NCBI GenBank assembly: GCA_008632985.1
Contig: QPGO01000225.1
Location: forward strand, 1-64,000
From: Psammoneis japonica
Taxonomy: Eukaryota
Direction of reading: 5' to 3'
DNA length: 64,000 nt
Shown: piece after piece, positions 27,600 through 53,388 of the stretch
Position numbering within the stretch: the stretch's first letter is position 1
Layout: each line of letters opens with the position of its first letter
The notes under the pieces: model-generated
What the model was told of the DNA's origin: nothing
Seen by the model: only the letters and a program-made list of their open reading frames with translations
Databases searched by the model: none
Made by a program: the position numbers and the translations under genes

Positions 27600-30500
27600 G
27601 CAATTTTCAATTGTCAAGTAATCAGATTAGCATGGATTGGATGGGATCTCACGCAACCTTTTCGTCCAAATTGCACACTGGTCTCTTGACCGACTATCTG
27701 GATTGTTGGCATGGCTGACATTGTCAGAGTCACTGTCTTTTGACTGGAAAGTAGGTGCACTCCAGCAACTTCACTTGGAGCTTTCCAATGTTTGCTCAAT
27801 CGAGGGCGTCGACGCCCCGCCCTTCCCTGAGCAGGGACAGGGTCACCCATTCCTGCTGCCAGCTGGGTTTCTGGGGCCCAGGCTCTGGCAGCAGGGTGCT
27901 GCACCCAGGGTTGGGGCTCGCACAGAGGAGGGTCAGGGTTTGGTTGGGGAACACCTGCGCAAATTTGATGGTGAAACCAGAGCTCCAACTGCAGCATGCG
28001 ACTGTCACATGCATTGATTTCAGGCCTCCAACAAATCAACAAAATTCTGCCAACACATCAATTTGGAAAATGAAGCAGATTCCTCTGCCACTCTTGATTC
28101 AGCTCACCATCTTTGAACTGAAACCTTTGTGTGTCAGGACAATTCAGAGGATGCTGCATCTCTTCTAGACTTGGATGAATCAAAAAGCAATCCACCAACT
28201 CTTGATCTTGAATGGTGCAGAATGAGGTGCTCAATTTGGGGCCCAAATTTTCTTTGAGTGATTCATCTTCAGGAGCCACAGCAGTCGGAGGAACAGAAAA
28301 ATCAACAATGGTGCCTTTCAACTCCACTCAAGAACTCTTCCCTTCCATGGTTTTCTCCACATGAGGAAATTGTGAAAAGAAATCAGCCAGAATGTTCTCC
28401 TTGCCCTTGACGCATTCAAACTCAGGTGCAAACAATTCTTTGAGAAAAAGGCACCAACACGAAGCACTCGTTGCGTGTTGAGCATCTTGAAAGTCAAATT
28501 CTTGTGATCTGTGTGGACTGTCATTTCAGCTCCCAACAATGTGGATCAGAATTCCTTGAAACAAAGAGATGCAGCAAGCATTTCCTTTTCCATGGCAGAG
28601 CAGTTCTTCTGAGCTGCATCAAGTTTTCGGGGCCAACACGCGATCAGCTTGCCGTTCTGCGTGATGACAGCATCGAGTTGACAATCGCTTGCATCTGCAC
28701 AATTCTGAAAAGGAAGGTTGTGATCAGGACAAGCATGCAATGCATCACCCACCATTACAGCCTTGATCTCTTCAAAGGCTTTTTGACAAGCTGGGGTCCA
28801 TTCAAAATGTTGCTTCCTGGTCAAATCCGTTGATGGCGCCAAAACGTGCAATTGCCGAGGCCACATGTCACGACAGCAACTGATGGCTCCAACAAAAGAT
28901 CTGAGTTGTGTGTGGTTCTTGGGAGGATCAAGCTTGAGCACTGCCTCTGCTTTCTTCTTCCAAGGCTTGATGCCTTCTGGAGTCATCCAATGTCTCAAAA
29001 AATTGGTTTCTTGAACGGCCCATTTGCACTTGAGCGGATTCACTTTCAAACTTTTTTGCTCTGGTCATTGCAATGCGGCACTCAATGCAGCTAGATGCTC
29101 TGAGCAAACCATGGAGAAGAGACTGACATCATCAACAAAACAATCTGCACCAATCTCATTCATCACTTCTTCAATGACAGCTTGAGCAATGTCTGCCTGC
29201 AGCAGGTTTCAAACCCATCACGAGCTGACAACATTGAAACTTGCCGCAAGGAGCAACAATGGTGCACAGTTCCTTGTTGGACTCTTCATCAAGTTCCAAA
29301 GCACAATGGAACACAGATGGAGGACCCAACTTGGTGAAATGCTTGCACCCCTTTCTCTTCTTGACAATGTCTTGAATTCTTGGCAAAGGACAGATTGGCC
29401 TTTCTCGTCAGGACCTCCTGGCAGACCACAGCCTGCCATGTTGAAGCGGCACACATCTGTGCTCCATTCTTGTGACTGAACATCAGTCGGAGGAGCTCGT
29501 TGAGCCGGATGAGCATTTGGTTCCTCTGAACTGCTCTGCACCTGATTTTGATTTGCGTGAAAATTCTGAGGCAAATTCTGTGGACCGCATCCTCGGCCCA
29601 TGCTGCTCTGGTTGTGACCACAGCCACATCCACCTTGACCATGTCCAAAACCATTGTTGGGGGCACATCCACCACGCCACATCCATGCCCAGTGCAGCTG
29701 GCATTCTGAGGACCACAAAATTGGCCTCCACAATTTCCTCAGCCTGGACATGGATTGCGACCTTGTCCACGACCTGCATCTCGGCCTGTGCTTGGTGAAC
29801 CTTGGCCACCACTCTGAAAATGAGGGTTTGGATTGCAGTTGGGACTCTTGGCATTCTCCCTGCAATTTTGCCACAAATGAGGTGCTGCAGAGTCCTTGTG
29901 CAATCAAACAACAGAAGTTGGGACCAAACCTCTCTTCTTGTTCCCGGCAGAATCCACGTCTCCAGCCTTGCCTTTCTTGGATTCATCTTCAGACTTGCTG
30001 GCACTCTTCTGATCAGCAAACCTTTTCTCATTGAACATGCACTGAACAACATCTTCCAAGGAATCAGTGCTGACATCCTTTCAAGTGCGCACACAATTCT
30101 GCTTCCACATCATCGGCACTCCCGTGAACATGTTGTTCTTGATCTGCTGCTCATTGAGCAAATGCTCAGTTCCTGGCAGCTTGTCAGCATGACATGACAT
30201 TTGAATCATCCTGTCCGCATGCTCACAAGGAGAATCGCCAAAGGGTTCAGAGAAGTTTTTCAAAAATTTAAACATCGCACCACGTGCTTGATGATTGCAG
30301 CATCGCTGATTGAAGCACGCAATTTCCACATCAAACCTGACCATCGTTTGGTCTGCTTCAGCCACACCCGAAACCAAATTGCTCCACATGTCTTGAGCAT
30401 TGTCTTCTGGTGCTTCTTCAAAATGAGTGAATTTTTCAGGCCCTTCATCACAAACCAGATGCCCAGTTGTTGGGCTGTGCAGGCGTGTGTGAGGTGTGAG

Positions 30501-33500
30501 CAGAACATGCGTGGAATCACCACTGAGTGAGTTGACATGCGGCGAATTTTCTGCCTGTGCACAATCTGCATGGTCTGCATGAAAGACAAATTTATGTTGG
30601 TCTCTTGGGGTTTTACATGTCATTGACATTTCTTTGGTCTTTAAAGCGCATGTGCCCAAATTCAAAAAAGTGAGGAACATCCCGAAATGCACTCTAGAAT
30701 CTGAGTGAAAAACATTTATTTGGTGGTCCAAACAGGGTTGTCTTGAAGCAATTCTAAAATTGTTGACATTGTTCAACACAGCCAAACATCCACTGTCACC
30801 AAAACAGAGTGTGGCCATTGGCAAAATGGTGCCCCCTGTCCTTCTCAAACACTGACAAAGCATGAGAACACACAACAACAACATGGCAAGCAACGCGAAC
30901 ACAATTCACGGATCTGCAAGAGTGTGTTTCCAGACAAGATCAAAGCCATTGGACAACATTTTGTGCTTGTTTGTTCCTGGGTCAAGTTGGGTTTCTTCTC
31001 AATGCTTGTTGTCATGTCATTTTACAACATTTTGACCCACCCCATGTTTTTTCGGCACAACTCTCAAAGAATTCTGCAGTGTGGAGTGAGCACTCGATGC
31101 CACACTTGCCGGTGAACTGAGGGCACATTTTCTGTTTCTCAGCGCCACTGTCACAGTTCTGTGCAAGTTTTGCTTTGTCCAAATCTCTGTGTTTGAAGGT
31201 TGGTTTGCACACAAAGCACGTGCCCTCAACGAGGCTCTCGCCAAATGCGACATTGCGTTTGAGGCAAAGAATGCACAGCAAAGAAAAGAGAAGGAAAGAA
31301 CAAGACACAGTGTGATCACAGTGAATGGTCTTGAAAAGTTGTCCATGAATGCTTTCTAAAAATCATGGGAAAAGCTGCGATTGACTGCAGCCACAGTTTT
31401 TGGGTTTCTGTCACAGAATTTCTTCAAGGCATCAACAATCCCCCCCGGTCATTCAAATCTCCCAAATCTTGCAGCTGATGGTGCAACTGTGATGATGCAG
31501 AAGTTCACTTCAATGATGACATGCGTCATTGAGACAAACGTCACTCAAGTGAATCAGAAGAGGAGACATCCCCTTTTCACACATGAGGAATTTGGTTCTG
31601 CAATTTGAGAAAAACTGTCTGATGTGTCCACTGAGGGTTTGTTCACACGACGGTGTTTGAGGGAGAGACATGATGATCATTGAAACATGTCCTTCCACTC
31701 AATTGTTCAACGGTTTTTTTTTTTTTTTCACAAAATGGAAGTGCAAAGCACGAGCACACAAAGGCAGCCCATTCCTTCATTTGATGAAATTTGGTCATCA
31801 TGTTCAGAAGCCTCCTCATCCACCAGCAGGATGTGCCTTGTCTCTGCCCTGTGCACATTCTTGACAGCAGGCTTGAAAGATGGCTGAGCTCAGAAAACAG
31901 GGTGGCAAAAGACCTGCTCTCTAGATTGAGGGCAAGATCATCAACTGTTGGACACAAAAGCAAGAAATGCCACAAAGAAGCAGCAGATGTTCAAATTGTC
32001 TGGCACCCAGCTCTTGTTTGCTTCTGGCTCACACCTCTGGTGGCCAGACAGCCATTGTTCCACCCACAAAAAGGCATGAGAAACATGTCGATCACAATGG
32101 CCTCTCAAAGAGCCCCACTCAAAAACATGAACATGTGATTTGCTTTTGAGATTCAACTTGCAACACCATGCAAACACCACAGTGTTTGTGCTTCAAACCA
32201 TTCTTGTCAACTCATTGTGCAGCACAGCACCTGGGCACCACAAAAAGCTGCCAAAATTGCAAAATGTTTGCAAATGGACACATTTAAATTCCAAAAATCT
32301 GTTGTGCATGTCTGTTGTGTGTGACTCTGTGCTGCTGGCACCACCTTGAGTTGGAGCAGCACAGCACTCTAAAACAGTGAGCCAAGTGTCAGTGAGAGCA
32401 GCAGGCATTTTAGCACGCGAGCCTCATTGCGGTCTTCCAAGCCTCTCTGTTTTCTTCTTGGAATTTGTTTGCTCCATGTGCACTGGCAGAGGAGGGCATG
32501 TTGGGGAATCAGCAGCACGGTGTGCTCAACAAGAAATTGTGGCTGAGAGCCCAGCACAAACAATCACTGCACACTCCCCCACATGGAGACAGCTTTGTTT
32601 TCTGGGTGCAGTGATGGCAGAAGGAAAAAACACAGCAGCCATGAAAGCATGCTGCTGCATTTTTCATTGCTGCACAAGTGGGGCCAAGATGCACTGGCAC
32701 CACAACCACGCCACTCATCATGGACATGACAATGTTCAAATGGTTGACACAGCTTGCATTGCTGCAAAAATCAACCAAATCATGGTCATCACCACAACAA
32801 AACAACGTCAGAAATGGAGCACAAAATTGAAAAGAACCCGGCAGAAAATGTGGAAACCCAGAGGAGCTGCACCCATGACAAGTTTTGACTTTTTTTGCTG
32901 TGGAATTGCTCACTTTGAACAGTGAATGTAAAAATGCTTTGAGCAGAGCATTTCCTTGGTTGCAACAGAGCACATGGGGGCACACACAGAATGCATCAAA
33001 ACTCACCTTTGCCAGCCTCCAACATGCAAACCCACATCATGTGTGAGACACCCTTGGCTTGCCCCAGCAATGCACCTGTGCAAATTTGCAGCTCTGATTT
33101 TTTTCATCAGCCCCTTTGTGGAGATGTGCAGTCAGAGAAATCATTGTTGCACCATTGCAGCAAAAGACTTTTTGAAAAACAACAAAACAAAAAAATCAAG
33201 CTGGGGGGCGACACTCTTCTGAGCCAAATGGCTGGTCTGCTGGCTCCATTTTTCTGGTGTGGTGGGGCAGGCAGCAAGTGCAAGAGAGGAGGAAGGGCAG
33301 GGTTTCTTGGCTGGATCTGCTGGGCTCTTTGCTGGAACAAGGAGAGGCAGCCAGCCCTTGCTTTCTTGCTTTCCTTCCATGTCCCAAAAACAAGAACAGC
33401 TCACAGCTGCTGGTGATGAGTTTTGCAATGGCGTCAGGAGCAAACTTGCTGTGTGTTCCTCACCATGTGATGACTTTGTCAGCCGAGACTGCAAGCTGCA

Positions 33501-33680
33501 ATCACTCATGGCCACAATCCGCGAAAGTGTGTGAGGGTGGTGAGTCAAAGTGCGAAGCGGGCGCTGGACCAAGGCACCGCGTTCCGCGGTTTAGTGGCTT
33601 GCTTGCATGCGCCATCCACAAGTTGCAGCACCGGCAGGTGCAGTGGGGCCCTGGCTGCTCTGCCAGTGGCTGGCAGGCCC
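27600..33680. other. TpA/CpG-depleted hypermutated domain
   Basis: TA nearly absent, contains a Gypsy remnant. Confidence 0.85.
28060..30400 (-). mobile_element. Ty3/Gypsy LTR-retrotransposon remnant (gag-like region, RT, RNase H), frameshifted
   Basis: LPRIQDIV.KRKGCKHFTKL, LELDEES, CFVDDV, KVNPLKCKWAVQETNFL, QLRSFVGAISCCRDMW, FEWTPACQKAFEEIK, DASDCQL, EKEMLA, VHTDHKNLTF. Confidence 0.9.
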
Positions 33681-34017
33681 TCTAGCTAGAGCCAGCTCCA
33701 CCATTCTAGGGCCCTCTCTCTGTCTGCGAAAACAGGGGGGGTGCCGACGGAAGAAGAGGGGGGGAGAGGGGGAGCGAAGCGACCCCGTTGCTGCTGCAAC
33801 AACAAGAGAGAAGGAAGGAAGAGAGGAGAAGAACGCAGCAATGGTGGAAGTGAGTGCAAGGTGCGTTGTGTTGTCGCATTTTCGTGGCGTTGAAGATGCA
33901 GATCATGAGCCTGTCGCGCATAAAAAATTTCCACGGTTGATTTTGTTCAGGCGCCACCGCCCCCCATTTCCCATCTTCCGTCTCGGCGCCAATTCGAGAT
34001 GCAACCATGGGCTGGAA

Positions 34018-37000
34018 TCAAAAGGCAAGCAATGAATCTACATTTAGAGACTGCTTTGATGAACACTGTTCATCGTGTGGTGCTCTTCCTCGAGCAGCCA
34101 CCCCCAACAAGTTTGTTTTTGAAAGATGGAATTCCCTCGCTCGGCAACAGCAGCATTTTTGGTTCAGATCCGACTGCAGATTCGGCGGCATCTGCAACAG
34201 CGGCAAAACTGTTGGCACACCATTCCAAAAGGGATTAACTTGAATCGGAGCACAATGTGGAACAGAACATGGATTGGGGCATGGTACAATCGGCACTGGT
34301 GGCAGCTGTCTTGGTGGAACAACCTCTTGCAAATTCGAAGGTTTCACTTTTTTCGCGCGCGGCTCCTCAGACGGCGGCGGTTGTTGAGACTTGGATTTTC
34401 TTTTGCATGGATTCTCCACACTTGCCATTGGGTTAGAATGGGTTGAACATGGGTTTCTTGTGCCACACTTGTTGCACATGCATCTGTCAGATTTTTTTCC
34501 GGATGCTGCTGCTGCTGCGCCGGTTGCAGCACTTCTTGTTTCGAGCTGCTCTCTCACGCGTTCCAATTGCTCCGGGCAAGCTGAAAAACACCGCTCACCA
34601 TCATCTTCTTTTAGTTCTTCGACATTCCCATGCACAGGATGGGGTGCTTCTGCTTTCTCTGCCAGCTTGTTGATGTGGTCAAGCTTGCTGTGGTTGAGAA
34701 AAGTGGGAACGCCTCGAAAGGCGCACGGAATCTTGGCGCGCTCGTCAGCCGTCAGTTCGTCTGTTCGGACACGCTCTCGCATTGACATGTTGCATTCACA
34801 CGTTCCTGCAAGGCACAGTGCATCTATCAGAGAGGATCTTGAACCAGTGTTTCCAAAATGCTTGACGACATGGTGACACTTTTCAAGCTTTGATTCCGTG
34901 CCAGTGGTTGTTACAAACGTGTCGAGCTTACACTTGGACCATTTTGAAGGCTTGACAACTCTGTGTGAGTCTTCACGTGGCAGCGGCTCATCAAGTCCAC
35001 GAGCCGACAATTTTGCGTTTTCAACCGCTGGCTTTGTATCTTCCGTAAAAAGCGGCTTCCCAGAGTCTGGGTCACACCGTCCGCCAGCTTCTGCCGCGCC
35101 GGGAGACGCAGAGCACTTGTGCCGATCGAACCAAGATTCCAGATGCTTGTTCCGTGTTTCGAGTGGGTAAGTCCACCTTCGAATGTACTTCTTGTAGTTG
35201 TTCCACTTCTCACTGTTCTTGATTTCCTCAATTTCTTCCGTCGTGTTCTTCTTCCCGCCAAGTTTCCCAAAGACAAGAGCATCAACTACCTTCGCCTCGT
35301 CGGATTCATCGTTGTACCGGACGCAATCCTTTAAATCACGAACCGCACGACAGCAATCAATGTGAGCACCTCGTAAAGTCCGAATGATGCGGTTTGTCCA
35401 GTGCCAAAGACCAAGCCTGCATGCAATGTCCTGACCAAAAATTTGCTTCCAAAACTCTTCCTTGTTGGGCCAAGCATCAGAGCAATGCACTTGAGGTTTG
35501 ACATTTGGACGCCTCGCAAACTGTTCAGCTGCATGCGCATGGTCTTTTGTTTCCAATGTTGGCACTGCTACAGCTGCACCAATCTCTCCAGTCTCTGTGG
35601 CCATGGTGAAGAGTCCCTTGCCGTTGTTGTCTTTGCAATTCTTCAATTGGTCAAAAGTGTGGTCGGACGCAACACTGATGCGACAACCAACGGATTGCAT
35701 TTCCCTCGTGTGCCGAATGTTGTCGCTTGTTCCGGTCTCGGTAAGGTTTGATTGCCGGACAAAATCATGCACATCTCTCACATTTTGTCCAGTGGGTCCA
35801 CAGCGACCGACCCAATCCTCGAACACCGACAAACCCGTCGCATTCCCTCCGCCAGCATCTTTTAACAAAGAATGGTAATTTTCCTCTTTATCAACAAAAG
35901 TCTCGCCTCTTTGTTGATGAAGAAAAGCAGACATGTCATCACCATTGCCACACTTCTTCATGGCATGGTCCACACATCGTGACGTTTCGAGCGACAGGTG
36001 AAAAGACGGATTCGCGGCTGTGCATCGTAGATCCACGGGATGGCTTGTTTGCAGAGGCCTCGGCAGCTTCTTAATTAGCTTGGGATCGTTCGCCTTGCAT
36101 TTACAGCCACATTTATTGCACTCATAGAGCATTGAGCTTGTCCAATCAGCAGCGCCACTAACTTTCAATGCTGGAGTCGGTGAACACTCCTTCTTGACAT
36201 CAAACTGCTGATGCATCATCTCGCCATCATCACATCCATCAACACATGGCAAAAACATGCCAATGAAGTTCAATTCCCAGCGGAGCAAATGGATTGTAAC
36301 GCCTTCAATCTCACTGCAGAGGTTGTCGGGAGTTTTGGTCATGTCATCACGTGGCACTGTAAATGACATGGCACCGGAAGGAAAATTCTTCTGACGCCAT
36401 TTAAGTTTCTTGGCATTCACCTCTCCGCCCATGATCTCATTCGAGTCCGCATGAAACCGAGATGGACACAAGTCCAGAAGGTGCAAAATCAAAGCCTGAA
36501 TGGGTGCAGGACAAGGAATCTTCTTTTTTTTACACGTTTCAATTCGTTTCCGAATCTCTCTCTTGAGCACCTCTCTAGAGAGAGGATCTTCTTCAACAAT
36601 GTTGCCAGAATGCTCCATGCTGTTCGACGTGACGGTGCTGATGGCAGCAGCAGTGGCGTTGGCAGCAGCGTTGGCAGCAGCAGTCGGCAACGAGACGGTC
36701 GTTGCAGATGGCTTGTTGTTTTTTGAAGCCCTGGTGCCATTGTGGAACAGTGCCTCCATGCCTTCCTCAGTTGGGGCCTGACAACCCGGCAGCTTTTTTG
36801 CGTTCTTTCTTGCGTCACCAGCAATGAAGCGATGGATGGCCGCGTTTCGCTCGGTGCTCATGTTCTTTCCATGGTGGATGGATTTTGGGCAGCTCGTGTC
36901 ATGACCCTTTTTGTAGGAGGGCCCTTGTTTGCACCTTTTGCACTCAACAACCTTTTCTTGAGTAGTGTGACTGTTTGGCAGAGTCAGAATTTGCAATTCT

Positions 37001-37356
37001 GCCTCCGCCGCCGGTGATGTTGTAAACCGAGGCGCATTTTTCCCCGACAACCCAGCGATTCCAGAAAAAGCTTGCTCCTTTGCTTTTTTCGTGGCTGCCT
37101 TTCGAGTCTGAGACTGAATGCCCATGGTGCTGGGAAGCTCATGGGAGAGATGCTTCTCCATTCTGCTGCAATTCCTTCTCTCAGAACTCTCTTGTGCAGG
37201 TCGGTGCTGATGATGAGTGAGATGAAAAAAGACGGGAGGAGTTTGAATTTTGTGTGTGGTGTCTTTGTCAGAGCGCCAGTGCTCAGACTGTGGCGCATCC
37301 GTCTGAGATGGATGAACCGAGGTGGCTGTGTCTGTGTTGCATTGATCGTCAAGCAA
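34018..37356 (-). CDS. Putative DDE transposase (MULE-related, SDHTF type), copy 1; ORF open but Tyr-eroded
   Basis: CxxC and CxxCxC zinc-binding segments. RNase H-like core VASDHTF..GLFTMATETGEI, second Asp in VHCSDAW, RLGLWHW (matching the C/DxxH motif), candidate Glu in GTESKLEKCHH. Real start is probably MGIQSQ at 37125. Confidence 0.6.
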   Translation of the reverse strand: MLDDQCNTDTATSVHPSQTDAPQSEHWRSDKDTTHKIQTPPVFFHLTHHQHRPAQESSERRNCSRMEKHLSHELPSTMGIQSQTRKAATKKAKEQAFSGIAGLSGKNAPRFTTSPAAEAELQILTLPNSHTTQEKVVECKRCKQGPSYKKGHDTSCPKSIHHGKNMSTERNAAIHRFIAGDARKNAKKLPGCQAPTEEGMEALFHNGTRASKNNKPSATTVSLPTAAANAAANATAAAISTVTSNSMEHSGNIVEEDPLSREVLKREIRKRIETCKKKKIPCPAPIQALILHLLDLCPSRFHADSNEIMGGEVNAKKLKWRQKNFPSGAMSFTVPRDDMTKTPDNLCSEIEGVTIHLLRWELNFIGMFLPCVDGCDDGEMMHQQFDVKKECSPTPALKVSGAADWTSSMLYECNKCGCKCKANDPKLIKKLPRPLQTSHPVDLRCTAANPSFHLSLETSRCVDHAMKKCGNGDDMSAFLHQQRGETFVDKEENYHSLLKDAGGGNATGLSVFEDWVGRCGPTGQNVRDVHDFVRQSNLTETGTSDNIRHTREMQSVGCRISVASDHTFDQLKNCKDNNGKGLFTMATETGEIGAAVAVPTLETKDHAHAAEQFARRPNVKPQVHCSDAWPNKEEFWKQIFGQDIACRLGLWHWTNRIIRTLRGAHIDCCRAVRDLKDCVRYNDESDEAKVVDALVFGKLGGKKNTTEEIEEIKNSEKWNNYKKYIRRWTYPLETRNKHLESWFDRHKCSASPGAAEAGGRCDPDSGKPLFTEDTKPAVENAKLSARGLDEPLPREDSHRVVKPSKWSKCKLDTFVTTTGTESKLEKCHHVVKHFGNTGSRSSLIDALCLAGTCECNMSMRERVRTDELTADERAKIPCAFRGVPTFLNHSKLDHINKLAEKAEAPHPVHGNVEELKEDDGERCFSACPEQLERVREQLETRSAATGAAAAASGKKSDRCMCNKCGTRNPCSTHSNPMASVENPCKRKSKSQQPPPSEEPRAKKVKPSNLQEVVPPRQLPPVPIVPCPNPCSVPHCAPIQVNPFWNGVPTVLPLLQMPPNLQSDLNQKCCCCRAREFHLSKTNLLGVAARGRAPHDEQCSSKQSLNVDSLLAF

Positions 37357-37756
37357 TGATGATGTGTGTTCTTTCAGAAAGCCCCAAGTGTTGCAGCGTG
37401 CATTCTTAGAATGAAGCGTTCTGATTGGTCCAATCTTCCATCGGCAGGGGGCTTTCGTCGGTCTGCGAAAACAGGGGGGGTGCCGACGGAAGAAGAGGGG
37501 GGGAGAGGGGGAGCGAAGCGACCCCGTTGCTGCTGCAACAACAAGAGAGAAGGAAGGAAGAGAGGAGAAGAACGCAGCAATGGCAGAAGTGAGTGCAAGG
37601 TGCGTTGTGTTGTCGCATTTTCGTGGCGTTGAAGATGCAGATCATGAGCCTGTCACGCACAAAAAATTTCCACGGTTGATTTTGTTCAGGCGCCACCGCC
37701 CCCCATTTCCCATCTTCCGTCTCGGCGCCAATTTGAGATGCAACCATGGGCTGGAA

Positions 37757-40700
37757 TCAAAAGGCAAGTGATGAATCTACATTTAGAGACTGCTTTGATG
37801 AACACTGTTCATCGTGTGGTGCTCTTCCTCGAGCAGCCACCCCCAACAAGTTTGTTTTTGAAAGATGGAATTCCCTCGCTCGGCAACAGCAGCATTTTTG
37901 GTTCAGATCCGACTGCAGATTCGGCAGCATCTGCAACAGCGGCAAAACTGTTGGCACACCATTCCAAAAGGGATCAACTTGAATCGGAACACAATGTGGA
38001 ACAGAACATGGAACGGGGCATGGCACAATTGGCACTGGTGGCAGCTGTCTTGGTGGAACAACCTCTTGCAAATTCGAAGGTTTCACTTTTTTTGCGCGCG
38101 GCTCCTCAGACGGCGGCGGTTGTTGAGACTTGGATTTTCTTTTGCATGGATTCTCCACACTTGCCATTGGGTTAGAACGGGTTGAACATGGGTTTCTTGT
38201 GCCACACTTGTTGCACATGCATCTGTCAGATTTTTTTCCGGATGCTGCTGCTGCTGCGCCGGTTGCAGCACTTCTTGTTTCGAGCTGCTCTCTCACGCGT
38301 TCCAATTGCTCCGGGCAAGCTGAAAAACACCGCTCACCATCATCTTCTTTTAGTTCTTCGACATTCCCATGCACAGGATGGGGTGCTTCTGCTTTCTCTG
38401 CCAGCTTGTTGATGTGGTCAAGCTTGCTGTGGTTGAGAAAAGTGGGAACGCCTCGAAAGGCGTGCGGAATCTTGGCGCGCTCGTCAGCCGTCAGTTCGTC
38501 TGTTCGGACACGCTCTCGCATTGACATGTTGCATTCACACGTTCCTGCAAGGCACAGTGCATCTATCAGAGAGGATCTTGAACCAGTGTTTCCAAAATGC
38601 TTGACGACATGGTGACACTTTTCAAGCTTTGATTCCGTGCCAGTGGTTGTTACAAACGTGTCGAGCTTACACTTGGACCATTTTGAAGGCTTGACAACTC
38701 TGTGTGAGTCTTCACGTGGCAGCGGCTCATCAAGTCCACGAGCCGACAATTTTGCGTTTTCAACCGCTGGCTTTGTATCTTCCGTAAAAAGCGGCTTCCC
38801 AGAGTCTGGGTCACACCATCCGCCAGCTTCTGCCGCGCCGGGAGACGCAGAGCACTTGTGCCGATCGAACCAAGATTCCAGATGCTTGTTCCGTGTTTCG
38901 AGTGGGTAAGTCCACCTTCGAATGTACTTCTTGTAGTTGTTCCACTTCTCACTGTTCTTGATTTCCTCAATTTCTTCCGTCGTGTTCTTCTTCCCGCCAA
39001 GTTTCCCAAAGACAAGAGCATCAACTACCTTCGCCTCGTCGGATTCATCGTTGTGCCGGACGCAATCCTTTAAATCACGAACCGCACGACAGCAATCAAT
39101 GTGAGCACCTCGTAAAGTCCGAATGATGCGGTTTGTCCAGTGCCAAAGACCAAGCCTGCATGCAATGTCCTGACCAAAAATTTGCTTCCAAAACTCTTCC
39201 TTGTTGGGCCAAGCATCAGAGCAATGCACTTGAGGTTTGACATTTGGACGCCTCGCAAACTGTTCAGCTGCATGCGCATGGTCTTTTGTTTCCAATGTTG
39301 CACTGCTACAGCTGCACCAATCTCTCCAGTCTCTGTGGCCATGGTGAAGAGTCCCTTGCCGTTGTTGTCTTTGCAATTCTTCAATTGGTCAAAAGTGTGG
39401 TCAGACGCAACACTGATGCGACAACCAACGGATTGCATTTCCCTCGTGTGCCGAATGTTGTCGCTTGTTCCGGTCTCGGTAAGGTTTGATTGCCGGACAA
39501 AATCATGCACATCTCTCACATTTTGTCCAGTGGGTCCACAGCGACCGACCCAATCCTCGAACACCGACAAACCCGTCGCATTCCCTCCGCCAGCATCTTT
39601 TAACAAAGAATGGTAATTTTCCTCTTTATCAACAAAAGTCTCGCCTCTTTGTTGATGAAGAAAAGCAGACATGTCATCACCATTGCCACACTTCTTCATG
39701 GCATGGTCCACACATCGTGACGTTTCGAGCGACAGGTGAAAAGACGGATTCGCGGCTGCGCATCGTAGATCCATGGGATGGCTTGTTTGCAGAGGCCTCG
39801 GCAGCTTCTTAATTAGCTTGGGATCGTTCGCCTTGCATTTACAGCCACATTTATTGCACTCATAGAGCATTGAGCTTGTCCAATCAGCAGCGCCACTAAC
39901 TTTCAATGCTGGAGTCGGTGAACACTCCTTCTTGACATCAAACTGCTGATGCATCATCTTGCCATCATCACATCCATCGACACATGGCAAAAACATGCCA
40001 ATGAAGTTCAATTCCCAGCGGAGCAAATGGATTGTAACGCCTTCAATCTCGCTGCAGAGGTTGTCGGGAGTTTTGGTCATGTCATCACGTGGCACTGTAA
40101 ATGACATGGCACCGGAAGGAAAATTCTTCTGACGCCATTTAAGTTTCTTGGCATTCACCTCTCCGCCCATGATCTCATTCGAGTCCGCATGAAACCGAGA
40201 TGGACACAAGTCCAGAAGGTGCAAAATCAAAGCCTGAATGGGTGCAGGACAAGGAATCTTCTTTTTTTTACACGCTTCAATTCGTTTCCGAATCTCTCTC
40301 TTGAGCACCTCTCTAGAGAGAGGATCTTCTTCAACAATGTTGCCAGAATGCTCCATGCTGTTCGACGTGACGGTGCTGATGGTAGCAGCAGTGGCGTTGG
40401 CAGCAGCGTTGGCAGCAGCAGTCGGCAACGAGATGGTCGTTGCAGATGGCTTGTTGTTTTTTGAAGCCCTGGTGCCATTGTGGAACAGTGCCTCCACACC
40501 TTCCTCAGTTGGGGCCTGATAACCCGGTAGCTTTTTTGCGTTCTTTCTTGCGTTGCTAGCAATGAAGCGATGGATGGCCGCGTTTCGCTCGGCGCTCATG
40601 TTCTTTCCATGGTGGATGGATTTTGGGCAGCTCGTGTCATGACCCTTTTTGTAGGAGGGCCCTTGTTTGCACCTTTTGCACTCAACAACCTTTTCTTGAG

Positions 40701-41094
40701 TAGTGTGACTGTTTGGTAGAGTCAGAATTTGCGATTCTGCCTCCGCCGCCGGTGATGTTGTAAACCGAGGCGCATTTTTCCCCGACAACTTAGCGACTCC
40801 AGAAAAAGCTCGCTCCTTTGCTTTTTTCGTGGCTGCCTTTCGAGTCTGAGACTGAATGCCCATGGTGCTGGGAAGCTCATGGGAGAAATACTTCTCCATT
40901 CTGCTGCAATTCCTTCTCTCAGAACTCTCTTGTACAGGTCGGTGCTGATGATGAGTGAGATGAAAAAAGACGGGAGGAGTTTGAATTTTGTGTGTGGTGT
41001 CTTTGTCAGAGCGCCAGTGCTCAGACTGTGGCGCATCCGTCTGAGATGGATGAACCGAGGTGGCTGTGTCTGTGTTGCATTGATCGTTAAGCAA
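37757..41094 (-). pseudogene. Putative DDE transposase, copy 2, frameshifted
   Basis: Same protein split into ORFs 39070..41094 and 37757..39376 by a 1-nt deletion at ~39300 (AATGTTGCAC versus AATGTTGGCAC in copy 1). Confidence 0.75.
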
Positions 41095-41449
41095 CGATGA
41101 TGTGTATTCTTTCAGAAAGCCCTAAGTATTGCAACGTGTATTCTTAGAATGAAGCGTTCTGATTGGTCCAATCTTCCATCGGTAGGGGGCTTTCGTCGGT
41201 CGGTCTGCAGAGTCGTGTGACTGTTGTCTGTTCTCTGACTGCATAAAAAGCGCGCCAAAATCTAAGTTTTTCCGCGCCTGCTCGCCCTCGTTCGATTTAT
41301 TTGGCTCACATTGGCCTTGTGTAAATACAGTAAATAGAAGTAATTTACCGCTTACCGCAATACTACAGTTGAAACAGAAGCGACAGAATATCTGTTGCGA
41401 AGATCCTTGACTTTAGTGTATAATCCCTCTAGAGAGATCCTTCTCTGCG

Positions 41450-41500
41450 ACTACAGTAGCTACTACTACTACTACTAGAGGCTAGCTACTACTCAAGTAG
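41450..41500. repeat. (TAC)n microsatellite and TA-rich low-complexity tract
   Basis: CTACAGTAGCTACTACTACTACTACTAGAGGCTAGCTACTACT. Confidence 0.85.
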
Positions 41501-41607
41501 AGAGGAGCAGTCCGGAGTGTGGTACTGTAGCTCTGAGGGGTAGCTCTGTTTGTCTGTAGGCTCATTCAGAGACATACCGTACGTCTGAACAACAAACTAC
41601 AAACAGC

Positions 41608-43477
41608 ATGAATCTTGAGATGCCATGGGGGAGCGCAAGTTGGTGGCAACATGAAGCACTCACCGTCAACGGCAAAGTCGCTGACCTGCCGCTTGATGCA
41701 GCAGGTGATGGTCGCGTGCTTGCCACAGTTAAAACTTATGATGGACGTAAAGCAAAATGGGGAGCCGAACAAGTGCTCGCACGTGTCGATGGCGACCGCG
41801 TCGACATTAAACTATCACCAGGTGGGCGTGTATCCATTTTTCCACAGGTTATTTCGAAGAAACAAGCACAAGAAGTTACCGAGGAACTTCTGGAAAAACC
41901 ACTCGGAGTCAACATTTTCCGTTCATACCCTATCCAAGGATTCAATCAAGAACCGCGACTCCACTGCCAGTTTCATGAAAACGCGACGCTCGACTTTGAT
42001 CAGAAACAACCTGGGTATCGATACAACAAGCGTACAACAGCAAAGGCTCGTCCACTTTCCATGGCACGAAAGTTAGAGGGACTGTCGAAACACATTGGTG
42101 AGAGGGTGGGAGTGCAAAAGTGGAATATTGGTGTCACTGCGGTTTTGTACAGGGGCGGACATGATAAAATGGGGCAGCATGCAGGTGAGAAAGCGGGAAA
42201 ATTCCAAAATGTGATGTGTGTATGAATACTTCGTTGTTGATGTACACGCGAGACCTTACGAACATTTTCATCGAAATTTACAGACGACGATCAAGGGGAG
42301 ACGAAAATTGTGGCGCTTGTGGTGGATGCTCCTACTGATGAGCCTCGTAAAGTCCTAATCAAGCCCAAAGTTGCCAACAAGTCGCTCCAAAGTGGGGATC
42401 AGAAAATCGAACTCATCCTGCAACCTGGTGATGCCTATATGATGGACGGTGCGTATTGAGTATTGATCTACCCTTAGTGAGCTCTTTGCTTCCTTGACAT
42501 TATAACTCACCAGAATTTCTTGTCGAACTTGAAACGTGCCAGGCGAAATGCAATTCTGGTGGACTCACGGAGTGGCTCGTATTCCAGAGAAGAAAAAGGA
42601 AGGTGTTGCGGCTGCCAATCGCAGACTTGCCATCATCTTTAGGGATGGCAACCACGTAGAATTCGACAAGGATTCAGGTTCTCCAAGTACAAGTTTGGAG
42701 CCAGTAAAGCCCTGCTCAGGTCCAACATTCGGCTCTGTCGATGGCATATGTGAAGGGCATGTGTACCCTAGAGTAGAGCTAGTGCAGAAACGCGGGCATT
42801 ATTCTCAACAAGGCGGCATTAGTGGCAACTCTAAACAGGGTTGTGACGCAATCATTGTTAGTGGGAAAAGGAAAGGAGATGACCAATTCTCCAAAATCAT
42901 GTATGCCGCAGAAACAAGAGTCGGAGCCAACGGATTGGTCCTTAGCTATCAGAAGCAATTACCTATTCGAGTTTTCCGTTCCAAGAAGTACCAAAGCTCC
43001 TTTCGAGCTGTCAGTGACTCTCCAAAGAAAAAGACACAAGAGATTTACCGGTATGACGGTCTTTATTTTATTGAGTCTTTCGTACCGAGCAAGAAGAAGG
43101 GTGGGTTGTTTCAGTTTCAACTCTGTCGTTGTGCTACAACTGCGGAGCCCGGAAAATCGACGTGGCGCAATGCTATTGACAGTTCTGCCTTCTACGAAAA
43201 ATGTCTTGCCTTGAGAACCATTCCGAACCATAAAATCAAAGACTACTACAAAATGTATGAAGCTGACATTATTGTGGAAGCTCAACGCGAGATGACGGAA
43301 GAGACGCTTGGTGTAATGCAACTTCTGAGTCTGAGGCAGTCGCATCCATCTCAACTACACGACTATTCTGACGACATTGTGCATGGTGATGTGGTCAGTA
43401 GTCTTGCTTCTTATCGTGACTTTGGCTGTGCCGAGATCCTGATGGACCTCAGTGAGATGGACATGGCGGCCGTTTAA
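41608..43477 (+). CDS. AlkB-like 2OG-Fe(II) dioxygenase fused to an SRA/YDG (SAD) domain; three exons
   Basis: Exons 41608-42184, 42284-42448 and 42543-43477 with GT-AG introns. Splicing restores LYRGGHDKMGQHA-DDDQGE (HxD), LQPGDAYMMD-GEMQFWWTHGV (distal His) and RRLAIIFR. SRA motifs follow: FGSVDGICEG, GH..QQGGISG...GCDAIIVSG, LPIRVFRS, YRYDGLY. Confidence 0.88.
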
Positions 43478-44105: not shown

Positions 44106-44316
44106 AACAAGTGGCTTGCGGTGTTACCAATCATCCAAGCGAATATTTTGCTAGAGCAAAGTGACACAGCATCCGGTCCTTGTATTGTTGCCAAGGCGGT
44201 CCTCTACTTGACACCCTCAACAAGTGGCTTGCGTTGTTACCAATCATCCAAGCGAATATTTGCTCGAGCAAAATGACACAGCATCAGGTCCTTGTATTGT
44301 TGCCAAGGCGGTCCTC
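44106..44316. repeat. ~100-bp tandem direct repeat
   Basis: AACAAGTGGCTTGCG.TGTTACCAATCATCCAAGCGAATATTT...GGTCCTTGTATTGTTGCCAAGGCGGTCCTC occurs twice. Confidence 0.9.
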
Positions 44317-44757: not shown

Positions 44758-45023
44758 ATATGCAGAGCCAGAAGGTGCTCTCGTTCCGTCCATACAGTTG
44801 CAACCTTATAAAGTAGACATGAACTTCTTCGTGTCGGGGTGTTCAAAAACAGCAAGTGTAGACTGCTATAGCTCGCGTCACTTGCGGATATGCAGAGCCA
44901 GAAGGTGCTCTCGTTCCGCCCATACAGTTACGAACTGATGAAGTGGACACGAACTTCTTCGCGTCGGGGTGTTCAAAAACAGCAAGTGTAGAAGTGTAGA
45001 CTGATAGCGCGCGCCACTTGCGG
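44758..45023. repeat. ~130-bp tandem direct repeat
   Basis: ATATGCAGAGCCAGAAGGTGCTCTCGTTCCG...GTCGGGGTGTTCAAAAACAGCAAGTGTAGA...CACTTGCGG occurs twice. Confidence 0.9.
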
Positions 45024-49532: not shown

Positions 49533-50546
49533 TTACCTTTTTCTTCTTTTTTTCCTTTCTCCCACTCTGCTTTCTATGCGGTCTATACATTCCTTCAGTG
49601 AAGCAAGAAGATCGTCGCCCGGGATTTGAAAGACTTGCTGAACCTCGTCCAATGTCTCGTTTCGATCCTTTTCTCTAATGTGAACATGTAGCCGAACTGA
49701 ATCTGGGTTCACAGCTCCGTAGTGTAGTTTGTAGTCGTCCAACCACGCAAAGCAATTGGCGGGAATGACCTCATTGACAAATGCAACTCCTCCAGAATGG
49801 CGAAAGGCATTGTTCTGTTTGGCAAGATGAGGTAGTTGCTCGTGTGGGTCACCAACAGCAACAGTGCCAATGAGGCAGTCCCTCCCTAACAAGTTGTAGA
49901 TCATGGTGCCAGATTCTACACCTGATCCTTTTTGAGATTCTCCGGTATTGGCATCGGTGTGAACCGCTTGATCTTGCGATCCAAAGGCTATCAAGGTGAT
50001 CTTCGTCACTTCACATTTCTTACTGGCCGGCAACCCAAACGCCCAACGATGATCACTGGTCACACGCTTGATAGTTTCATTTATCATGGCGATGTGTTTT
50101 GATCGTTTCTTTTCCATGTTCGGAGCAGCTGGGTATCTCTCCGTCCCATTCTTGCAGTAGACAATGCGTTGCGGCCTGTGATCCACTCCATGCTTTTTTT
50201 TCACCTCCTTTGAAAACGGATCGTCAAACTCGATCATGGCATCACCCTCACCTTTGTCACTACGCTTTGCCATGGGACGGTTTTGATGAGCAAATGACTT
50301 TGCATAATTCTCCAATCCCGGTACGGAAGCAACAGCTGAAATTGAAGGGGCAACGGCAAAACCATCAACAGGCATGACGTGACCGACATTGGCTAGTCTT
50401 GATTTGTTCGAGGCATCAATCGTTTGCTGTTTTTTTCTTGAGCGGGTTCCCCCAGGGTTTTTCGTGCGTCGCTTGTCATCCACCGTCATTTCCACATCTC
50501 CCTCCGCTTGCTTTTGCAGCTGCCTTTTCTTGGAGCCCTTGCCCAT
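49533..50546 (-). CDS. Putative 2OG-Fe(II) dioxygenase (PhyH-like fold) with basic termini
   Basis: Intact ORF with normal Tyr use, QDQAVHTD (HxD), LHYGAVN (distal His), VRLHVHI (Arg), NLS-like RKKRRKR C-terminus. An upstream exon is possible. Confidence 0.6.
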   Translation of the reverse strand: MGKGSKKRQLQKQAEGDVEMTVDDKRRTKNPGGTRSRKKQQTIDASNKSRLANVGHVMPVDGFAVAPSISAVASVPGLENYAKSFAHQNRPMAKRSDKGEGDAMIEFDDPFSKEVKKKHGVDHRPQRIVYCKNGTERYPAAPNMEKKRSKHIAMINETIKRVTSDHRWAFGLPASKKCEVTKITLIAFGSQDQAVHTDANTGESQKGSGVESGTMIYNLLGRDCLIGTVAVGDPHEQLPHLAKQNNAFRHSGGVAFVNEVIPANCFAWLDDYKLHYGAVNPDSVRLHVHIREKDRNETLDEVQQVFQIPGDDLLASLKECIDRIESRVGERKKRRKR

Positions 50547-50663
50547 GTTCACTGCTAACAACCTGCAACGCGCAACGCAGATTTTGTTTCTATATATATT
50601 TTAGAGGTTGAAATGCATGTTGTGGGTTGTGGGTTGTGTGGTGGAAGAGTTATTGCGCGGAGG

Positions 50664-50916
50664 TTCATCGTGGAACCCCACAAATACGCGGGGACCCGTA
50701 ACCCGGAAATGTGTAGAGTTGTACGTGCATGTATGGGGACTCTTTACGTAGGTTTTGTACCAGAGCTATCTCGCGAACTAGGCGTTTTTTCGAAATTTTG
50801 TCGTAGAAACTGTACCAGTTTTGCGTATGTAGGCTACATGTTTCAGTACCACATACAAAAATGAGCGTAGACCTCTACAGGAGGGTCCCCGCGTATTTGT
50901 GGGGTTCCACGATGAA
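50664..50916. repeat. Perfect 34-bp inverted repeat with a 185-bp spacer (MITE-like or hairpin)
   Basis: TTCATCGTGGAACCCCACAAATACGCGGGGACCC at 50664-50697 and its exact reverse complement at 50883-50916. Confidence 0.92.
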
Positions 50917-50929
50917 GGTGCTTTCGCTT

Positions 50930-53388
50930 GGGGATGGAGACAAAAAACAAAAAAGGGTGGGCCGAAAGTACGGACAGACGGTCGAGAGGATGAGTTGGAT
51001 GGCTTGGCTGGCGGGTGACAGCAGGATGGCAAAGAAAAGAGTTTGGCATGTGGAGAGATGATCGGAGAGAGCAAAGCCCCAAAGTTGAGGCTGAGGATTT
51101 GAGAGGCCCAGAGTTGAGGGGTTGCAGTGTGACAAGAGGAGCTGAAGCGGTCCGGCGAAAGTTGTTTCCAGGCCGCATCATTGGAGTGGGCGAGGGGGTT
51201 GGAAGGTGTGAGAGCAGGGAGTTGGCGAAAGTGGAGAAGGGTGCTTGAGAGTTGGAAAGGGAGGGTGGGCTTGTCCAGGGTGGTTTGGGAGGAGGAAGGG
51301 GTGGGAAGGAGGAGGATGTTGTGGTGGAGGTGCAGAAAAAGAAGACGTAGAAATGACACCCAACTGCTCCAAGGTGGTCAAATGTGAGAGGAAGGAGGGG
51401 GAGCCCAGCTTGGTTGACAGTGTCAATGACATCAGAGCCATGGGCAGATGGCGCAGAGTGACCAAGAAGCTTGTCCCATGCACTGCTGAGGTGAGCCTTT
51501 TTAATGGGTTTTCAAGGACAGGCAAGCCAGGTGCAGGAGTCGGGGGAGCTGGTGGTGCAGCGACGTCAATGGCCAAGAACTGGTGGGTTGATGGGGCGTT
51601 TGGTGGTGCAGAGCCAGGAATGAGTTGAACACCAACATCGGCAGGGCATTTGAGGGGGTCGTCAGCCAAGAGGTTGGCAGGGTCAAGGTGAGCCAGTTGG
51701 CGGGAAAGGCATGAACCACAAAGAGGGCCCAGTGTTTCGATGACACGGTGCAAATGGTGTCGCAAATGTGATTTGACAGAGGGCCTTCATGCATTTTAGA
51801 TCATTCAAAGGCATGGTCTCTGCAAGGGTCTGGGTGGGTGTGGCTGCATGGGCAGTTGTGCTGGAGCAGATTTGGGGGAATCATTGGAAGGTGCAGCTTG
51901 CACAGGAGGAGAAGCAGTGCAAATGAGTTTGATGGGAGCCGGTTGGAGGCAGGAGCTCAGAAAAGGGAGTGAAGGCACAGGCTTGTTGGCGGAGACAGCA
52001 GGGATGGAAGAGCTGGTTGCATGGAGGGATCTGAGGAAGAGTGCTGTTCTTGTGATGACACAGGTGAGTGCACTGTGCAAGGCCGTGCAGGTTGTGGTGT
52101 TTGACAGCATGTGTCAAAGAGGTGAAAGAAGGACGAGAGTCAAACCACCAAAGGAGGATGTGGGAGTGCAGCAGCGGAAGATGCAACAGAGGGAAAGGAT
52201 GGAGCATGGGTTGACATGTTCCAGCTGCACGTGAACCAAATCGTGCACAAAAATGACTTTTGCGCAATTTCCGTGGGGTCTCTGACTTGCGACCTGGCTT
52301 TCTCCACCAAAAGCACAGATTTGTGCAAATTTGAATGTTTTGCAACACTGACAAGACTCGCGTCAGTGTTGCAACATCATTGCTCATGTGCAATCTGCTT
52401 TTTTTTGTTGCAACAAATGAGCTGCAATGCAACGGATGATTTTTGGTGAAATCATTGCCGTTGTTGTGATGTCAAAATTTTCCTGCGATGATGTCTGGCA
52501 TGGGTTCTGCCTGCAGACAAATCTCTGCACACAATGTGCTGTCATGCAATCAGCATTGAGTCTGCTGAGGAAGTTTGTTGTGCATTGCCCCCATGAGGAC
52601 TTGCATGCCAATGGAAAAACCAATTAAATGTTGACACTCTGGACACCTGCAAAAACACATCCACTCAAGTGTTTCATGTGCAAATGCTCCATGCACGAGA
52701 GACACACAATTTACATTCAAAATTGATTGTTGTTTTGTGCATCACCTGGGACTGGAACACGTTGGTCAGACCATGAGCCAAGAGCAGCAGAGTGGCTCAA
52801 AGGGAGATGAAAGACATTGCCGCGGGTGAGTGGGATGCTGTGTTCAGTGTGACGCATGGATCTGGTGAGAGAGGCTGTGAGAGCTGGGGTGGTGACAGTG
52901 GAGACATCACGGCAGCCGACACTGCCCAATGATTTGGATGGGCTGGCAATGAGTTTGGTGGTGGAGGGGAGTGTGGGTTGGTGTGTTGGGCAAGGCAGGC
53001 AAGGAAATGCAGGGAGCGGCCGATGATTTTGTTGGTGAAAGGAGATGTCCATTGGAAAGGTTGTGGGTGGTTGCTGGATCATTGCACAAGGTTGCAGCAT
53101 GCATCAGCTGACAGAAGATGAGCAATGGAGGGGATGGAGCATTTGCTGAAGAGCGTGCTTTGTGTTTGCTTGTTGGCAAGGTGGGCGGTGAGGTGGTGGA
53201 GGTCTGTGGCAAAGGAGGCAGCTTTGTCACAGAAGAAGTTCATGGCAAAGGCAAATGAGCCAACAGGCCAGCCAAGGAAGCGGATGCTGGCGGTGATTTC
53301 AGGTTTGTTGTGTGGGTCGTTGTTGGGATTGAGAAAGCAAGGGCTTCCAAGAGGGCATTGGCATTGGTGGCTGGAAGGCTGGCAGCCA
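50930..53388 (-). mobile_element. Non-LTR retrotransposon (CRE-like, RLE type), 3' part: RT thumb, zinc knuckle, restriction-like endonuclease
   Basis: IRFLGWPVGS..F, CSIPSIAHLL, FHLPL, NHICDTI (H..IRD), KCPADV...LAIDV (RPAD..DV), LLPLTFDHLGAVG. Confidence 0.7.

Follow-up and report, generated by a model that had tools for sequence, protein, structure and literature searches.

A tandem transposon at a domain edge in Psammoneis japonica as a probable record of a domain-restricted TpA-erasing mutator and slower CpG decay

A stretch of 64,000 nucleotides from Psammoneis japonica (contig QPGO01000225.1, positions 1 to 64,000 of the forward strand; assembly GCA_008632985.1), hereafter the window, was analyzed. 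It contains two head-to-tail copies of a 3.74-kb DNA transposon, located between a domain almost devoid of the dinucleotide TA and an island of normal composition. The comparison of the two copies with each other, of the encoded transposase with its relatives and of the unit with the surrounding DNA indicates that this tandem probably records the action of a domain-restricted mutator that erases TpA, together with a slower decay of CpG. The main evidence is that TAs kept at the right end of the border copy have been replaced by CA or TG in the same part of the inner copy, while the CpG-type divergence of the two copies is uniform along the unit.

The two copies and the differences between them

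Self-BLAST aligned positions 33719-37463 with 37458-41201 at 98.505% identity over 3745 columns, with 55 mismatches, 1 gap and a repeat spacing of 3738/3739. The tandem duplication of 33722-37460 and 37461-41198, which had been proposed in an earlier sequence-only reading of this DNA, was therefore borne out at 98.5% identity, and no third copy of the 3.74-kb unit was found in the window by the same search. Copy 1 (33722..37460), a complete DNA transposon, contains 40 TAs and 187 CGs, with observed/expected ratios (O/E) of 0.15-0.2 for TA and 0.7-0.85 for CG. Copy 2 (37461..41198) contains 50 TAs and 187 CGs. The sense strand is the minus strand in both cases, and 36 TAs are common to the two copies.

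The unit is flanked on the left by the 8-mer TCTGTCTG (33719..33726), a possible target-site duplication or microhomology, which is identical at 6/8 positions to the 8-mer read from the sequence on the right, TCGGTCGG (41196..41203). At the junction between the copies the 8-mer TCGGTCTG (37458..37465) combines the first half of the right 8-mer with the second half of the left one. Such a hybrid would be produced by an unequal exchange within flanking 8-bp repeats that match imperfectly. When the flanking 8-mers were tested as a target-site duplication they matched at 6/8, and a 2-bp GT reading was equally possible. The TAs upstream of the copy 1 open reading frame (ORF) were lost, and the stop-to-stop frame of copy 1 (1207 aa, 34021-37641, minus strand) now extends past this junction and reaches the 3' end of copy 2.

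Both copies were aligned with MAFFT, and all 56 differences were listed and classed by dinucleotide context. Transitions accounted for 53 of the 55 substitutions, and one 1-base indel was also present. The TpA-type class (TA versus CA or TG) comprised 18 differences, with the TA in copy 1 at 4 sites, all at column 1597 or before, and in copy 2 at 14 sites, all at column 2926 or after. The CpG-type class (CG versus TG or CA) comprised 19, the CG being in copy 1 at 10 of them and in copy 2 at 9. The remainder consisted of five TG-versus-CA doubles, six other transitions, two transversions and the indel. Pyrimidine-purine (YpR) steps hold 48/55 substitutions and 47.3% of the columns (binomial p = 6e-10).

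Every example of TA against CA or TG quoted in the sequence-only reading was recovered in the alignment. The TAs of copy 2 were located at 40383, 40520, 40528, 40717, 40890, 40934, 41088, 41106, 41123, 41128, 41139 and 41183, and the four reciprocal TAs of copy 1, all within the first 1600 columns, at 33921, 34236, 34285 and 35316. Two additional copy 2 TAs, at 40557 and 40791, had been missed. Many of the mismatches had also been described as TA versus CA/TG. The enrichment of mismatches in this kind of context (48/55 at YpR, 18 of them TpA-type) is clear, but the equally numerous CpG-type differences had been overlooked, as had the transposon nature of the unit.

The doubles were found at 33845-6, 34030-1, 34724-5, 36759-60 and 36816-7, and each of them requires two changes. 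Contigs from the independent reads (runs X1 and X2) were placed on the window, and those of X1 showed three further doubles against both window copies (38731-2, 39713-4 and 39861-2). This class of difference suggests that some YpR sites, TA or CG in the ancestral state, are extremely mutable and changed in both lineages.

Direction, position and flank context of TA loss

The direction of the change was analyzed with a hidden Markov model (HMM) of the transposase family, made from 47 homologues with the window protein excluded, in which 33 states have a Tyr consensus and 36 a Cys/His consensus. At the Tyr-consensus states both window copies carried Cys or His in 16 cases, Tyr in 4 and another residue in 12, with one state unaligned (n=33). 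By contrast, at the Cys/His-consensus states the residue was kept in 25 cases, changed to another residue in 11 and never changed to Tyr (n=36; Fisher p = 7e-9 against the Tyr states). Tyr is encoded by TAY, Cys by TGY and His by CAY; therefore, a replacement of Tyr by Cys or His means a change of TA to TG or CA. The Tyr content of the copy 1 protein (P0001) was 0.6%, versus 1.7-5.5% in the 47 homologues. These protein comparisons indicate that TA was lost, and not gained, over the history of the element, and the change from TA to CA/TG assumed in the sequence-only reading is supported by the 16/33 Tyr-consensus states that are now Cys/His, versus 0/36 in reverse. TA would then be ancestral at each of the 18 TpA-type sites as well, an assumption on which the TA-loss counts given below are based.

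The polarity of the CpG-type differences was obtained from the conserved columns of the protein. At all three such differences (3/3) the copy bearing the CG has the family residue, namely V at codon 441 (47/47 homologues), A at codon 446 (42/47) and R at codon 760 (20/25). The intact ORF of copy 1 is no sign of selection, because under the genetic code a change of TA to TG or CA never makes an in-frame stop. In copy 2 the ORF is broken by a 1-base deletion at 39299/39300 into pieces of 674 aa (39070-41094) and 539 aa (37757-39376).

The composition of the window was measured in 2-kb windows. In the deep domains TA O/E was 0.01-0.07, CG O/E was 0.06-0.37, and CA and TG reached 1.6-2.2, versus 0.46-0.67 for TA and 0.7-1.3 for CG in normal islands at ~8.0-10.7, 22.0-27.75 and 41.2-51.0 kb. 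In total, 92 TAs and 558 CGs were counted in the four deep domains (36.8 kb), versus ~1545 and ~2008 expected at island density. Their borders are sharp, passing from 0 to at least 12 TAs per 250 bp, and lie 147-938 bp from the outermost island ORFs. The duplicated unit is intermediate in TA and CG, with a deep domain directly on one side and the 41.2-51.0 kb island directly on the other. TA depletion is strongest in the single-copy flanks.

A strong effect of position was observed when the copies were compared at this border. In the right end of copy 1 (36645..37445), which corresponds to the 5' region of the transposon, 14 TAs of copy 2 are now CA (10) or TG (4). The last ~820 bp of copy 2 (40383..41183) form a shielded zone that keeps all 18 TAs inferred at duplication, 12 of them in contexts nearly extinct in the deep domains. 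Thus, TA loss in copy 1 amounted to 14/18 in the last 845 columns versus 0/36 in the first 2900 (Fisher p = 9e-10), and in copy 2 to 0/18 and 4/36, respectively. The split of 14:0 between the copies at the right end was significant (p = 1.2e-4), and the reciprocal 4:0 on the left side was not significant alone (p = 0.125). A position-dependent process fading at the domain edge had been proposed in the sequence-only reading. The split adjoining the normal island agrees with it, but a monotonic gradient fails for the four left-side TAs of copy 1, and the pattern resembles a shielded zone of ~820 bp more closely than a smooth slope.

The CpG-type divergence was uniform along the unit (5/43 CpG sites at the right end versus 15/154 in the body, p = 0.78). 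Therefore, the right end has the same age as the rest and is not an older or foreign piece, which speaks against a mosaic or gene-conversion origin. The decay per lineage, in natural-log units, was 1.5 for exposed TAs, 0.052 for CpGs and 0.0018 for non-YpR positions. TA loss in the exposed right end of copy 1 was consequently ~850x the non-YpR divergence and ~29x the CpG loss, in line with the fast process that had been suspected.

TA loss also depended on the flanking bases. Survival was calculated for each NTAN class as the TAs in deep domains relative to islands, and it was highest for TTAA (0.36), followed by CTAA (0.21), CTAG (0.16), GTAA (0.11), CTAC (0.026), ATAA (0.024), GTAC (0.017) and ATAG (0.006), with no survivors of ATAC (0) or ATAT (0). 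The surviving TAs were enriched for T at position -1 (0.53 vs 0.20) and at position -2 (0.61 vs 0.29). A two-position susceptibility score was then fitted on the parts of the window outside the unit, and its median was 4.3 for island TAs, 3.7 for the TAs lost after duplication, 2.4 for the 32 TAs shared by the bodies of both copies and 1.4 for deep-domain survivors (Mann-Whitney p = 0.015). Given the lower score, the body TAs are enriched for refractory sites, with T-rich 5' flanks and of the TTA/TAA type. Two further tendencies are leads only: a pyrimidine 3' of the edited A in 13/18 events (p = 0.096), and a split of 13 CA to 5 TG on the plus strand, corresponding to A-to-G on the sense strand of the transposase (p = 0.096).

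The TA-free left flank was reproduced by the X1 contigs, with 7 differences in 32000-33747 (~1.75 kb), 4 TpA-type and 3 CpG-type, in both directions. These differences may reflect continuing divergence or differences between strains or alleles. In the island, three X1 contigs over 1074 nt showed 0 differences and a fourth showed 1 difference and an 8-nt gap. A base-calling or assembly artefact as the cause of the TA and CG depletion was considered and rejected, since the X1 contigs show the left flank independently.

Proposed sequence of events and alternative explanations

A scheme of the events can be proposed on the basis of what was shown, namely which kinds of difference occur, where and with what statistical support, the direction in which the element has changed over time, the division into domains and the effect of flanking context. 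The transposon would have entered the margin of a silent domain derived from transposons, at ~400 bp on the upstream side of a normal gene, and would later have been duplicated head to tail, probably via unequal exchange within the two imperfect 8-bp flanking repeats. Two decays would act inside the silent domain, with genes and the adjoining few hundred bases left untouched: a fast one from TpA to CpA/TpG, most simply by deamination of adenine to inosine at TpA, and a ~30-fold slower one from CpG to TpG/CpA, most simply by deamination of 5-methylcytosine. Before the duplication the right end of the transposon would have been within ~820 bp of the border, keeping most of its TAs. The duplication would have put a second right end 3.7 kb inside the domain, where 14/18 TAs would have been lost, and none would have been lost from the border copy. 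An enzyme would be responsible for the fast decay, chromatin or methylation would define the domain, and the promoter of the neighboring gene may set its border.

Several observations weigh against this scheme. All 18 TpA-type sites are located in unconserved columns of the protein or outside the ORF, and protein outgroups gave no site-by-site polarity for them. An outside third sequence agrees with the TA at 1/18 sites (41088), where the only X1 contig over 41088-41095 agrees with the TA of copy 2, and this same contig differs at 41092 and 41095. In both bodies 11 TAs of the fast class persist, versus 10/12 such sites lost in the right end of copy 1, so that a uniform dose would need extra heterogeneity of rate; the susceptibility-score test supports such heterogeneity but does not prove it. 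The five TG/CA doubles exceed the prediction of independent changes at a uniform rate, estimated at well below 1 for CpG with 5% loss per copy. The four left-side TAs retained in copy 1 (first 1600 columns) and lost in copy 2 are not predicted by a pure gradient of distance to the border (n=4, p = 0.125). Beyond the border, the X1 contigs showed 10 differences from the window at 42773-42933, mostly transversions, where the X2 contig agrees with the window; this mismatch may correspond to a paralogue. One of the deep domains contains a BRCA2-like relic, and foreign DNA may therefore not be the sole target. Finally, the inner junction (37458-37465) is bridged by no listed X1 or X2 contig, and long contigs are absent from parts of the stretch.

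The first alternative is a mosaic produced by gene conversion, in which the right ~820 bp of one copy would have been overwritten from another member of the family, by a more decayed tract in copy 1 or a less decayed one in copy 2, and the cluster of differences would be the history of the donor and not of the position in the domain. Other copies do exist: beyond 41198 and 41200, two X1 contigs continue from the element into different unrelated sequences, and the same is true of one X2 contig before 37474; therefore, the family is dispersed, with ends that coincide with those of the duplication unit. The differences also form a single contiguous tract, and 4/8 of the non-YpR differences fall within the last 845 columns. 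A diverged paralogue should, however, differ in every class, and the CpG-type divergence of the tract equals that of the body. Furthermore, the tract is one-sided, with the undecayed state in copy 2 at 18/19 TpA- and CpG-type differences, and 3/4 of the extra non-YpR changes are A/T in copy 2 versus G/C in copy 1, at 6 bases or less from a TpA-type change, so that they resemble the same process with a relaxed context. Conversion was thus considered unlikely.

A one-off, kataegis-like cluster formed in single-stranded DNA at the duplication breakpoint, with no lasting effect of position, would also place the changes near the junction. In fact, the cluster of copy 1 stops 15 bp from it, the four reciprocal losses of copy 2 are on its other side, and TA became CA on the plus strand in every one of the six changes with which the cluster begins. 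The whole cluster nevertheless lacks strand coordination (10 CA versus 4 TG, and 13:5 over the 18 sites, p = 0.096), and the losses of copy 2 are scattered at 200-1594 bp from the junction. Such an event would leave unexplained the fast-class TAs kept at the border through the earlier decay of the body, and it was judged quite improbable.

Dispersed or allelic copies could also have been joined falsely in the assembly, in which case the differences would be real but the argument from position would be void. The absence of a listed contig over the inner junction fits this idea, as do the dispersion of the family and the fact that 209/407 placed X1 contigs fit two places. The junction 8-mer is, however, an exact hybrid of the flanking 8-mers, which is atypical of a mis-join, both outer junctions are spanned by X1 contigs (32947-33747 on the left and 41171-41705, with 0 differences, on the right), and the 56 differing positions do not correspond to a stutter of identical reads. 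An assembly error of this kind is therefore very unlikely.

The reverse polarity, by which a process like repeat-induced point mutation (RIP) would have converted CA/TG to TA at the end of copy 2 after duplication, by C-to-T change at CpA, is suited to duplicated DNA and to TpA-type differences that are all transitions and alone fit either direction, but it is hardly credible, since the element and its surroundings are depleted and not enriched in TA, Tyr was replaced by Cys/His at 16 states versus 0/36 in reverse, the 9 copy-2-specific TAs in the ORF include no in-frame stop (estimated probability ~0.19) and the TA density of the copy 2 end is lower than that of the adjacent unique DNA.

Known systems, the transposon family and the neighboring DNA

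A domain-restricted loss of TpA has its closest parallel in the chlorarachniophyte Bigelowiella natans. The text of a 2026 preprint describes, in mutation-accumulation lines of this alga, de novo changes of TpA to TpG/CpA limited to two integrated viral regions, where 230/231 de novo mutations were A:T to G:C, all at TpA, at rates ~1000-fold over the rest of the genome and in some lines only; an ADAT2-like deaminase is its proposed candidate enzyme (Mettrop et al., bioRxiv 10.64898/2026.01.13.699255). As far as that text goes, the likeness extends to A:T to G:C change at TpA only, to discrete regions and to clustered TpA depletion with enrichment of CpA and TpG; the enrichment of transposon-type domains among depleted genes and a seemingly episodic or regulated process were also counted as likeness. 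Three elements of regional TpA hypermutation, namely TpA transitions, discrete regions with rates orders of magnitude above the rest, and TpA depletion with CpA/TpG enrichment, were found in the window.

The two cases also differ, to judge from the same text. For two window genes, the relatives that carry a name are diatoms and not Rhizaria, and the target in the window is a DDE transposon beside retroelement relics, whereas in Bigelowiella it is DNA of nucleocytoplasmic large DNA viruses (NCLDV) and virophages. The depletion is deeper in the window (TA O/E 0.01-0.07 over ~37/64 kb, versus a Rho of 0.45 in the NCLDV region). CpG decay accompanies TpA loss in the window and is unmentioned in the text of the preprint. 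The window adds a preference for flanking bases, borders that follow genes and a comparison of rates within one locus, none of which appears in the main text of that work. The window case thus shares with Bigelowiella, as described there, the chemistry and the regional confinement, and the mechanism in the window would be adenine deamination with shielding by an active neighboring gene. A literature search, covering listings and the openings of abstracts, retrieved only the Bigelowiella preprint for hypermutation by TpA loss and nothing for diatoms.

Fungal RIP is a genome-defence-like process that introduces context-specific transitions in duplicated DNA, changing CpA to TpA and leaving repeats rich in TpA. 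The resemblance lies in transposons mutated beyond recognition by context-specific transitions and in the duplicated DNA affected. By contrast, the direction in the window is the opposite, TpA being destroyed; the action follows a chromosomal domain that includes single-copy flanks, and the copies were hit unequally (14:0). CpG methylation of transposons has reportedly been found in diatoms (PMC5124317, PMC9998398). The change of CG to TG/CA in the window, polarized at 3/3 conserved codons and confined to silent domains, is like the decay of methylated CpG, except that CpG loss is here the slower of two coupled processes. ADAR favors U at the 5' side of the edited A. A dinucleotide specificity like that of an enzyme and the clustering of the changes recall ADAR and the kataegis of AID/APOBEC. 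In the window, however, the change is heritable and in genomic DNA, A (or T) and not C is changed, and there is no strict strand coordination (10:4).

A plausible but tentative extension is that diatoms, like Bigelowiella, possess a base-editing defence restricted to chromatin domains. It would change TpA to TpG/CpA, with TAs before a pyrimidine as favored targets and TTA/TAA avoided, and together with 5-methylcytosine decay it would erase all silenced content, including transposons, retroelements and captured copies of host genes, halting within a few hundred bases of active genes. If this is true, TpA editing would be a widespread genome defence of SAR-clade algae, mirroring fungal RIP with the opposite chemistry, and the tandem would provide a naturally occurring calibration of how fast and how specifically it acts and of its behavior at borders. 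The finding of the signature in diatom-like DNA and in microbial-mat contigs, deeper and coupled to CpG, suggests a system widespread in ecologically dominant algae. Such a process would shape most intergenic DNA of these algae and hide old transposons (141/143 deep-domain ORFs are without a family). The tandem has a built-in control, the same sequence being present at the border and 3.7 kb inside, from which relative rates, the preferred flanks and the extent of the shielded zone can be obtained. It also turns the definition of the target domain and the acting enzyme into testable questions.

The hypermutated ORF P0001 (1112 aa, 34018..37356, minus strand) is predicted, from the ORF list, homology and modeled structure, to encode a DDE transposase with an RNase H-like core, of unassigned superfamily. 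Related clusters numbered 874 at E <= 1e-3 and 208 at E <= 1e-30, and an alignment of 48 sequences showed invariant D565 (in a DHTF motif), D627 and E821/E825, plus Cys clusters. The predicted structure of a 611-residue core had a mean predicted local distance difference test (pLDDT) value of 90.8. It resembled the IS256-type ISCth4 transposase (PDB 6xg8 and 6xgx) with a Foldseek E = 9e-4 and, by VIA-align, a Z of 12.4 over 347 aligned residues at a root-mean-square deviation (rmsd) of 5.5; Z was ~10 for retroviral integrase cores and 9 for Hermes. ISCth4 and the window protein have in common an RNase H-like catalytic core in which a large insertion separates the second Asp from the Glu, but identity is 8-11% and the window protein is of ~1000 aa, with Cys-rich N- and C-terminal parts.

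Pfam gave no family at E <= 0.01 for the three pieces of transposase ORF, and among 16 homologues searched in Pfam 15 were without a family and one had a sub-threshold match to DUF6729. A sequence search of the PDB with the family profile returned a sole match, weak and implausible (merozoite surface protein-1, E = 0.026). Evidence for terminal inverted repeats was weak, the sole candidate being a subterminal inverted match of 13 nt (12/13), and 26/500 shuffles scored as high.

Relatives of the transposase were also searched for in metagenomes. No relative was detected in a scan with P0001 alone, and an alignment of 12 transposase sequences detected 78 loci, mostly in microbial-mat contigs, that encode relatives at 29-40% identity. 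TA O/E of these loci was 0.20-0.74, with TA/CG O/E in some 500-bp windows of 0.02/0.38, 0.05/0.32, 0.12/0.33 and 0.15/0.24. The fraction of Tyr changed to Cys/His was higher where TA O/E was lower (78 loci, Spearman -0.55, p = 1.4e-7); therefore, the same directional erosion affects this transposon family in other organisms or populations. Four loci (L077, L034, L011 and L064) showed the same erosion as the window transposase. At the Tyr-consensus states L077 has 18 Cys/His versus 3 Tyr, and a flank window with a TA/CG O/E of 0.02/0.38. The homologue P0043 has 1.7% Tyr, with Cys/His at 6/15 conserved Tyr positions.

To the left of the tandem lies an old domain (27800..33700), nearly TA-free and CG-poor, which contains a relic of a retrotransposon RNase H (28549-29064, minus strand; RT_RNaseH_2, E = 2.9e-16). 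The BRCA2-like relic mentioned above (20567-21133, minus strand; helical domain, E = 1.6e-6; OB1, E = 3e-4) is in a nearly TA-free domain and encodes 186 aa without tyrosine. Judging by its sequence it may derive from a host-type gene, as a copy or relic that has been hypermutated, and the targets may not be foreign DNA alone. Pfam matches were obtained for only 2 of the 143 deep-domain ORFs of at least 110 aa. Another deep domain has an open frame of 918 aa (54737-57490, minus strand) with no Pfam match, where the plus strand has a CA O/E of 1.74-1.94 versus 1.46 for TG; it may be another eroded mobile-element gene. In the other deep domains the CA/TG skew showed no consistent match to the orientation of their relics.

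On the other side, a TA-rich spacer (41199..41607, with 28 TAs in 41251-41500) between the transposon and the next gene constitutes the domain border. The first gene beyond it (41608..43477, plus strand) encodes a fusion of an AlkB-like 2OG-Fe(II) oxygenase (PF13532) and an SRA domain (PF02182), the latter being a module that flips methylated bases. It has an intron-like GT..AG skip of 94 nt (42448-42541), whose joint was seen in run X2, and both domains are also present in fused homologues of 549-657 aa, among which one is named Nitzschia sp. The position of a DNA-modification enzyme beside a modification-dependent border may be a coincidence and is a lead only. The other genes of the window are a Kelch gene, an ankyrin+AAA gene and an alpha/beta hydrolase gene. 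All homologues of the Kelch protein with a source name are from diatoms, at a best identity of 47-52%.

Scans of the window with Rfam and for tRNAs detected no RNA genes. According to Tandem Repeats Finder the deep domains are not simple repeats, and three small arrays were found, all in normal islands. Two of these are located at 44106-44316 (a period of 112, ~1.9 copies, 94% matches) and at 44758-44992 (a period of 130, ~1.8 copies, 91% matches). A strong GC skew (+0.18 to +0.34) was observed at 50001-54000, where the island passes into the next deep domain. Additionally, because TA loss removes two of the three stop codons (TAA and TAG), long false ORFs overlap in all frames of the deep domains, which is a hazard for annotation.

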